IMG/VR virus record: IMGVR_UViG_2681813224_000001
Origin: a virus
Lineage: Duplodnaviria > Heunggongvirae > Uroviricota > Caudoviricetes
Length of the DNA: 21,304 bases
Strand: one strand, 5' to 3'
Position numbers and translations under genes: made by a program. Under the pieces are notes generated by a model that saw nothing but the letters and a program-made list of their open reading frames with translations, was not told the origin of the DNA and searched no databases. This document shows positions 10,728 to 11,113 of the stretch, piece by piece; position 1 is the stretch's first letter, and each line of letters opens with the position of its first letter.

Positions 10728-10742
10728 TGAAGAGACGTTTGG
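10728..10742 (+). repeat. 15-bp direct repeat, copy 1 (tgaagagacgtttgg)
   Basis: Exact copy recurs at 11099-11113; the two copies bracket the 113-aa ORF. Confidence 0.8.
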
Positions 10743-10755
10743 GTAAGGAGGATAG

Positions 10756-11097
10756 ATGGCGTTCAATGACCTTGAATATCAAGCAGTAAAAAAAGAAGTT
10801 CACCAATTCATTGAAAGCATAAGGCCGCCTGAACATATCCGCAATGAACTGGATATTGTTTATAGCATCAATGACCAAACGATAGATATCGGCGAACAGC
10901 GCCCCGTGTGGCAGGGCAATCCAGGTGAAACAAACATCCTGCCATCAGCAAGAATCAAGTACATACGTTCTCTGGATAGATGGAAAATCTATTGGATGCG
11001 GAAGGATATGAAATGGCATCAGTACAGTACTGAACTTTCGCTGACTGATGCGCTTGAGCTTGTGCGTGCTAACCCGGATTGCTGCTTCTTCGGATGA
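10756..11097 (+). CDS. Hypothetical protein, first gene of the cI-distal accessory module
   Basis: 113-aa ORF with strong RBS (taaggagg) and ATG at 10756, 60 bp downstream of cI on the same strand; no family recognised. Confidence 0.6.
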   Translation: MAFNDLEYQAVKKEVHQFIESIRPPEHIRNELDIVYSINDQTIDIGEQRPVWQGNPGETNILPSARIKYIRSLDRWKIYWMRKDMKWHQYSTELSLTDALELVRANPDCCFFG

Positions 11098-11098
11098 G

Positions 11099-11113
11099 TG
11101 AAGAGACGTTTGG
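11099..11113 (+). repeat. 15-bp direct repeat, copy 2 (tgaagagacgtttgg)
   Basis: Identical to 10728-10742; lies immediately after the stop of the 113-aa ORF. Confidence 0.8.

Follow-up and report, generated by a model that had tools for sequence, protein, structure and literature searches.

Why should a single small gene behind the cI repressor gene of a lambdoid phage be bracketed by two exact copies of the same 15-nucleotide sequence? The space between cI and N in lambdoid prophages, Stx phages included, is where genes active during lysogeny are carried; rexAB, BstA, the Stk kinase and toxin-antitoxin pairs are examples. The window analysed here, a stretch of 21,304 nucleotides, is the early region of Shiga-toxin phage 933W, its positions 10600–11250 being 100% identical to AF125520. 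A first-pass annotation made from the letters of this stretch had noticed the repeat and offered two readings of it: the junction of a cassette insertion or duplication, or a repeated regulatory element, with deletion of the gene as a possible consequence. We confirm the exact direct pair TGAAGAGACGTTTGG, hereafter R, on the plus strand at 10728–10742 and 11099–11113, on both sides of the 113-aa ORF. Copy 1 ends 2 nt before the Shine-Dalgarno (SD) sequence AAGGAGG, copy 2 starts one base (G, 11098) past the stop of the gene, and the window holds no further copy with fewer than three mismatches. The features on which the argument rests are the following.

9991–10695, plus strand: cI repressor gene of 933W, 234 aa, with an S24 peptidase C-domain (Pfam Peptidase_S24), ending in ...REWLKSS-TGA; 100% identical to the cI of AF125520
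10696–10746, plus strand: relic of a lambda-type cI 3' end, non-coding, in frame with the 933W cI stop; reads LHRHIAGNQWPEETFG-TAA and includes copy 1
10728–10742, plus strand: repeat copy 1 (R), TGAAGAGACGTTTGG, encoding (P)EETFG at the end of lambda cI (L005), where the match is exact
10743–11113, plus strand: 371-bp unit made of the SD, DUF3024 and repeat copy 2; present or absent in related phages
10745–10751, plus strand: SD AAGGAGG of the DUF3024 gene, overlapping the relic stop TAA (10744–10746)
10756–11097, plus strand: DUF3024 gene L0084, 113 aa, ATG at 10756 and stop at 11095–11097 (Pfam DUF3024, 1.2e-30; PADLOC PDC-S43, 4.4e-41; AF125520 annotation)
11099–11113, plus strand: repeat copy 2 (R), TGAAGAGACGTTTGG, followed by the in-frame stop GGA TGA (11112–11117), as at the cI end
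11123–11140, plus strand: hairpin GGTCGCA-GAGA-TGCGGCC, a relic terminator without T-run (from its fold and from relatives with hairpin and T-run directly after cI–R)
11165–12833, plus strand: downstream module of L0083, stk and a 54-aa ORF (ORFs, profile matches); its left edge elsewhere is an R-like sequence plus hairpin
11165–11626, plus strand: L0083, 153 aa, annotated as RuvC-like (ORF list, AF125520 annotation)
11620–12666, plus strand: Ser/Thr kinase gene stk, matching the PADLOC PD-T4-6/mad6 models
12832–12853, plus strand: intrinsic terminator closing the cI-proximal operon (terminator scan)
13332–13715, plus strand: N (ORF list/annotation)

The bracketed gene is a candidate defence gene by its match to PADLOC PDC-S43; a PDB sequence search with DUF3024 gave marginal matches only (E 0.07).

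Identity of the repeat

Judged from its sequence, R is the 3'-terminal coding sequence of lambda-type cI, that is, its last five to six codons, (P)EETFG, and is not specific to DUF3024. The lambda cI gene ends in ...GTT ATC GCT AGT CAG TGG CCT GAA GAG ACG TTT GGC TGA (...cagtggccTGAAGAGACGTTTGGcTGA), which contains an exact match to R. R is also the coding end of cI in VT2-Sakai, where it is followed by gTAA; this TAA is the true cI stop and overlaps the SD-like box AAAGAGG of DUF3024. The cI stop of 933W falls 32 nt before R, the protein having a tail of its own (...REWLKSS-TGA), and the relic at 10696–10746 aligns with the cI ends of lambda, VT2-Sakai and SH2026. Natural variants of the relic among 77 loci comprise five non-synonymous, one nonsense and two synonymous changes. 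Since these variants are mostly non-synonymous and include a nonsense change, the 933W relic is not translated, and on the same grounds we rejected read-through of the 933W cI TGA-C stop into the in-frame ...QWPEETFG.

The odd non-coding stretch behind 933W cI can now be explained as a fossil lambda-type cI tail. The first-pass annotation had not recognised R as the end of lambda-type cI, an identity that explains both the conservation of R and its place at a junction. It had held that a repeat belonging to a conserved coding context would speak against a junction; R is indeed the coding end of cI in lambda and VT2-Sakai, but the junction reading still stands.

A full-text literature search for the 15-mer matched lambda cI cloning primers only (as the reverse complement). 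Scanning 596 Gb of contigs for the 16-mer TGAAGAGACGTTYGGG was abandoned as a source of homologues, the matches being mostly chance ones in unrelated phyla, as expected at that size, and nothing usable emerging. In Lambda_2E9 (L006, 2600–2640), R carries an 11-nt internal deletion (ccagt|ACGTTTGGatggtgg), from which it appears that the junction sequence is also prone to small deletions.

Reassortment and cassette presence or absence at the repeat

An exact-match scan of IMG/VR for R returned 120 loci, about a dozen of which are chance matches in unrelated phages. The repressor-gene ends that precede R are of several types (lambda-type coding, the 933W-type relic, SH2026-type, a '...KVVKAQWP' type and two '...FWYSVL' types), and R is also found behind the DUF3024 3' end and behind the ends of small hydrophobic ORFs. 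To the right of R lie dozens of unrelated sequences, similarity ending at the stop codon, 1–5 nt past R, and in an alignment of six repressor types R is the sole conserved block. Clustering the flanks of 201 exact R sites, from 198 phage loci plus the window, gave 25 left classes, about ten of them single chance matches in unrelated phages, and 43 right classes, which occur in 62 combinations. Fourteen of the right classes have at least two left partners; the lambda-type cI end pairs with 17 right flanks and the 933W-type relic with nine.

Two sets of loci were picked independently of R. The 79 lambda-cI loci (at least 98% aa identity) have 22 kinds of downstream sequence, with a column entropy of 0.06 bits in R that rises to 1.8 bits from +5 onwards. 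Among 77 loci with a 933W-type cI, 74 diverge 1–5 nt after R, though R is non-coding there, and the junction lies upstream of R in the other three. In these alignments R marks the left edge of the cI–N mosaic hotspot.

The first-pass annotation had proposed aligning related phages to see whether the gene comes and goes at the repeat boundaries. It does so precisely, and the idea of a cassette or duplication junction that could mediate gene loss is thereby supported: DUF3024 plus one R (371 bp) is present or absent exactly at R in three matched contexts. Matches to the region break either at R1+2, where cI–R is followed by another module and DUF3024 is missing, or at R2+5, where DUF3024–R is followed by another module. 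Each matched pair differs by a clean 371-bp indel. The first sets 933W against L049, which has the 933W-type relic, R and a terminator and lacks DUF3024; in the second, a downstream sequence X lies directly behind cI–R in L073 and behind DUF3024–R in L002; in the third, a sequence Y lies directly behind cI–R in L121 and behind DUF3024–R in L052. No isogenic pair, that is, one phage with and without the cassette, was found, and the 371-bp indel may be an insertion or a deletion. On an E. coli chromosome (L399), a c2-like repressor gene is followed by an R-like sequence (3 mismatches) and then by the hairpin, the RuvC-like gene and stk; DUF3024 is missing, and the gene order is that of an empty version of 933W's own right-hand context.

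R-to-R spacing is 371 nt in 67 loci, and in all 70 DUF3024 loci from a protein search the gene is flanked on either side by an R-like sequence or by degenerate remains of one. The 'TGAg + R' junction is identical in all close E. coli DUF3024 loci (at least 96% aa identity), and at least three different modules follow R2; an identical junction with varied downstream modules suggests one founding join, then exchanges within or next to R. In VT2-Sakai-type Stx phages, DUF3024 is a pseudogene (L003, VT2-Sakai, 2539–2880), frameshifted by a one-base loss in an A-run near the start and unannotated in AP000363.

The hairpin at 11123–11140 occurs together with a T-run directly after cI–R in many phages, as an operon terminator; the T-run is absent in 933W and L399. 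In 933W, where it precedes the RuvC-like gene and stk, the T-less hairpin may now serve for attenuation or for the protection of an RNA end.

DUF3024 is one of several small genes found between copies of R. In other phages R also brackets a YoaK-family gene (32 aa; NCBIfam NF033821, 9e-18) and a 23-aa hydrophobic ORF (MREYLIVGVVTLLSVVAIVLMVA), the stop of each being the TGA of R, and one locus reads cI–R–ORF–R–YoaK–R–terminator. The small ORFs behind cI had no Pfam match. Tiny membrane-protein genes behind cI, each ending in R, were seen at L111 3990–4260, L063 7551–7652, L198 2790–3500 and L191 2550–2672, and in L198 the YoaK gene with its R is duplicated, one copy standing on each side of DUF3024. 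Larger modules examined behind cI–R, for example a HigBA-like one in L001 and HicAB in L008, had no R-like sequence within the 1.6 kb searched downstream.

Tails of other repressors occur in comparable places. DUF3024 of Kluyvera lies between two direct copies of GGTCGGCGCATrGyTGGTGA, with which repressor genes of another type end; in Kluyvera sichuanensis (L485, 1900–2400) the flanking repeats read GGTCGGCGCATGGTTGGTGA / GGTCGGCGCATAGCTGGTGA. The lambda cI–rexA spacer contains a degenerate copy of the Kluyvera-type repressor tail plus the start of R (0/1000 shuffles match), and this second tail suggests that rexAB once stood behind a different repressor gene. This part of the spacer, on the minus strand of L005 (lambda) at 2150–2230, reads GGCAAGGTGTTCTGGTCGGCGCATAGCTGATAACAATTGAGC--AAGAA and is homologous to the cI end of SH2026Stx1. 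Two arrangements in more distant hosts were recorded in passing. Rouxiella badensis (L481, 587–2648) has one cI followed by DUF3024, a DUF333 fragment, a second DUF3024 and DUF333 in tandem, with R-like sequences flanking the second DUF3024. Erwinia aphidicola (L482, 1731–4130) has DUF3024, the RuvC-like 153-aa gene, Stk and a small ORF in synteny with window positions 10756–12833, standing behind DinI and DUF333 genes, not behind cI; its proteins are 59% (DUF3024), 86% (RuvC-like) and 77% (Stk) identical to those of 933W, DUF3024 being far more diverged than its neighbours.

A proposed origin and its relation to known systems

We read R as a module-boundary sequence of the known cI–N mosaic hotspot, the pair in 933W as the footprint of two stacked post-cI modules, and R as usable as a short homology patch, and we put the probability of this reading at roughly two in three. 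The sequences show what R is, that modules reassort across it and that exactly 371 bp are present or absent; the exchanges would have used R itself as homology, probably through phage Red/RecT-type annealing proteins. The order of events that we infer is as follows. Two modules, each formerly directly behind a cI, would have become stacked when a piece of a cI 3' end was joined just past the DUF3024 stop, and this founding event would have been a single illegitimate or microhomology join ('TGAg|TGAAGAG'). The resulting order in 933W would be cI, relic cI tail with R, SD–DUF3024, R, relic terminator hairpin, RuvC-like gene and stk. Thereafter a single exchange joining R2 of a donor phage to the only R of a recipient with collinear order would yield cI–R–DUF3024–R–X and could set the cassette ahead of any post-cI module, and a crossover between R1 and R2 would delete the cassette precisely, leaving the empty site.

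R is 15 nt long; in some contexts identical bases next to it extend the shared stretch to about 20–38 nt. Efficient pairing is quoted as needing at least 23–27 bp with Red-beta and 31–34 bp with RecA (PMC3945230), and RecET recombination at 5–13 bp has been reported at about 1e-8 (PMC2327257). With R below the pairing minima, crossovers inside it should be rare; in our view rare crossovers would be sufficient on an evolutionary timescale.

Passages in two papers (PMC3029335, PMC2327257) describe short conserved boundary or 'linker' sequences as a long-proposed route, one among others, to lambdoid mosaicism, and trace the boundary-sequence idea to the modular theory of Susskind and Botstein and to Clark et al. 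2001. R resembles such linkers in that it is short, is conserved among unrelated neighbours and marks the edge of a gene, the modules on its two sides occurring in varied combinations. It differs in being the coding tail of one gene family (cI) and elsewhere a non-coding relic, and in occurring twice in one genome around a cassette; that recombination starts within it is a proposal. The cI–N interval, for its part, is described in a passage of PMC8585504, with reference to Degnan et al. 2007, as an established hotspot of mosaic diversity where exclusion genes are found. The present locus agrees with it in position, in the kind of cargo (DUF3024 with PDC-S43, stk with PD-T4-6) and in the sharp diversity right after the repressor gene; what is added here is a left edge pinned to a specific 15-mer, and stacked cassettes with the 15-mer repeated.

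Comparison with morons, attributed to Juhala et al. 2000 in a passage of PMC4104026, is more mixed. Like a moron, DUF3024 is an extra gene between sequences that are adjacent in relatives; unlike one, it had no promoter of its own in our scan and is followed only by the T-less relic hairpin. It appears to be expressed as part of the PRM operon. Relaxed or short-homology recombination by proteins of the Red-beta/RecT type has been put forward as a driver of phage mosaicism (PMC2327257, PMC3945230) and would be a plausible activity for exchange at short or diverged homology between co-resident lambdoid genomes, with the difference that R is under the quoted pairing minimum. We regard the 933W pair as a well-documented instance of a known phenomenon and not as a new kind of system; the additions are the identification of the boundary with a cI tail, its survival as stacked fossils and its place around small cassettes. 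R thus offers a concrete, testable substrate for the debate between linker sequences and illegitimate recombination as sources of phage mosaicism, and an anchor for mining accessory or defence cassettes, which would be sought directly 3' of ...TGAAGAGACGTTTGG-N-stop.

Competing explanations

How well R has been preserved bears on whether it is kept by selection or by exchange. R-like flanks are recognisable, and often nearly exact, around DUF3024 homologues only 56–63% identical in protein (L193, L194, L198, L481, L482). Rouxiella has R-like sequences with 1–2 mismatches on both sides of a 58% identical DUF3024, and the IMG/VR loci L193 and L198 have one with 1 mismatch after DUF3024. Between Erwinia and 933W, R2 is kept at 12/15 positions and the hairpin at 16/18, beside an adjacent spacer that is scrambled (13%), the DNA identity being 63% for DUF3024, 74% for the RuvC-like gene and 75% for stk. 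R2 of VT2-Sakai and ST160, on the other hand, is badly decayed, faster than the gene (82–85% identical DNA), and the R-like sequence of L399 matches at only 12/15 although the gene after it is 93.5% identical. R varies at 3/15 positions in the 933W-type context and the adjoining relic at about 8/32, a similar variability. The good preservation at the distant loci is not what a purely neutral relic would give; it would take either renewal, time and again, through exchange with coding cI ends or a degree of selection. Tentatively, we read the non-clock-like pattern of R as turnover by exchange with coding cI tails over steady selection.

The leading alternative is that R, possibly with the hairpin, is kept by selection because it has a function between the cistrons of the PRM operon, as a signal for RNA processing, stability or attenuation, as the seed of a 3'-end-derived small RNA or as a binding site, any role in recombination being secondary. 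The near-exact copies (1–2 mismatches) around the distant DUF3024 genes of Rouxiella, L193 and L198 and the retention of R2 and hairpin beside the scrambled Erwinia spacer would fit such an element, as would the position of R behind the stops of three kinds of cistron, its supplying of the stop codon of the small ORFs, and compensatory changes in the hairpin, which elsewhere reads GGCTGCA...CGCAGCC or AGGCTGCA...TGCAGTCT. We nevertheless consider it unlikely. The RNA structure prediction that the first-pass annotation had suggested was run over each copy, and the folds differ and are no better than those of shuffles (z = 0.06 and −0.16); Rfam gave no match (E up to 1, over positions 9900–13400), and scans for promoters and terminators found neither an element at R nor a promoter-like site upstream of 10756. 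The earlier proposal of a repeated regulatory element therefore finds no support in a common or significant fold, an Rfam family or a promoter. Replacement by exchange is also the better fit to the decay of R in VT2-Sakai, ST160 and L399 set against near-exact distant loci, and the left edge of the downstream copy varies by lineage (gag|TGAAG, aag|CCTGAAG, taa|GTGGCCTGAAG, tagg|GGCC...), as expected of independent joins. Most modules behind cI–R, moreover, carry no R at their far end, and a different repressor tail has the same flanking role in Kluyvera. Anti-sRNAs of the AgvB/AsxR kind were considered separately, for the CA-rich module after R or for R plus hairpin, and rejected, since these prophage anti-sRNAs are located at the PR' moron site (PMC4104026).

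A stronger claim, which we hold to be possible but would not bet on, is that R and the hairpin are maintained as a 'homology arm' or as a signal between cistrons, by which small cassettes expressed in the prophage become portable (DUF3024/PDC-S43, the YoaK family, the 23-aa membrane peptide). If so, this would be an integrase-free, array-like system (cI–R–A–R–B–R–terminator) in which one short-homology crossover adds defence or accessory cistrons behind any lambdoid repressor gene, and the preservation of R near distant DUF3024 genes would reflect selection, either for cassettes that can be passed on or for a function of RNA or DNA.

The module-boundary reading must also be weighed against the opposite possibility, that the repeats are relics only, produced by independent illegitimate joins with selection for intact genes, R never having been used as homology. 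R falls short of the pairing minima in the literature (PMC3945230), lambda and Kluyvera both carry stacked remains of other repressor tails, and in three of the 77 933W-type loci the junction lies upstream of R, all of which would suit this explanation. What makes it quite improbable is the placing of the breakpoints. R is non-coding in the 933W-type loci, where 51 nt are free past the cI stop, yet 74/77 break at the same nucleotides after R, a result that is hard to obtain from illegitimate joins plus selection for an intact cI and easy if R-attached modules arrive by homologous exchange. Likewise, the same right modules are joined at the identical base to several unrelated left flanks, the DUF3024 3' end among them, whereas independent joins would scatter.

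Duplication of a target site by a mobile element, or site-specific insertion of an integron-like cassette, would account for a single-gene insert between direct repeats with known empty sites, and is very improbable in view of the insert itself. The 356-bp insert codes for DUF3024 only, with no match to a transposase, integrase or nuclease and no terminal inverted repeats at its ends. In about 70 loci the gene has an identical R at its flanks, so that the duplication does not vary by insertion site; the 15-mer is the same at every site because it is the cI tail, and in Kluyvera another repressor tail replaces it. As for an integron, R has no significant or attC-like fold, and the neighbours are cI, a RuvC-like gene and a kinase.

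Coincidence can be dismissed, since the bracketing of DUF3024 by R recurs in about 70 loci and in distant genera. The chance estimate itself comes from 1500 first-order Markov simulations of the window, Ns left out (a 7-N run lies at 14608–14614): an exact direct 15-mer pair arose anywhere in 22% of them, within 1000 nt in 2% and within 400 nt in 0.7%. The earlier statement that such a pair is unlikely by chance in 21 kb accordingly fails for a pair anywhere in the window (P ~0.22) and holds at a spacing of at most 400 nt (P ~0.007); it is the location at both edges of the ORF together with the comparative data, and not the 15-mer match alone, that sets the R pair apart from chance. The window has two more exact 15-mer direct pairs, at 4673/4703 and 8772/8811. 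The first, GCAAATTTTGTGAGT (4673–4718, 30-nt spacing), lies inside an ORF on the minus strand (4194–4928). The second, TCCCTCGTTTTGAGG (8772–8826, 39-nt spacing), lies inside the O gene (8238–9176, minus strand), and its repeats are probably origin iterons.
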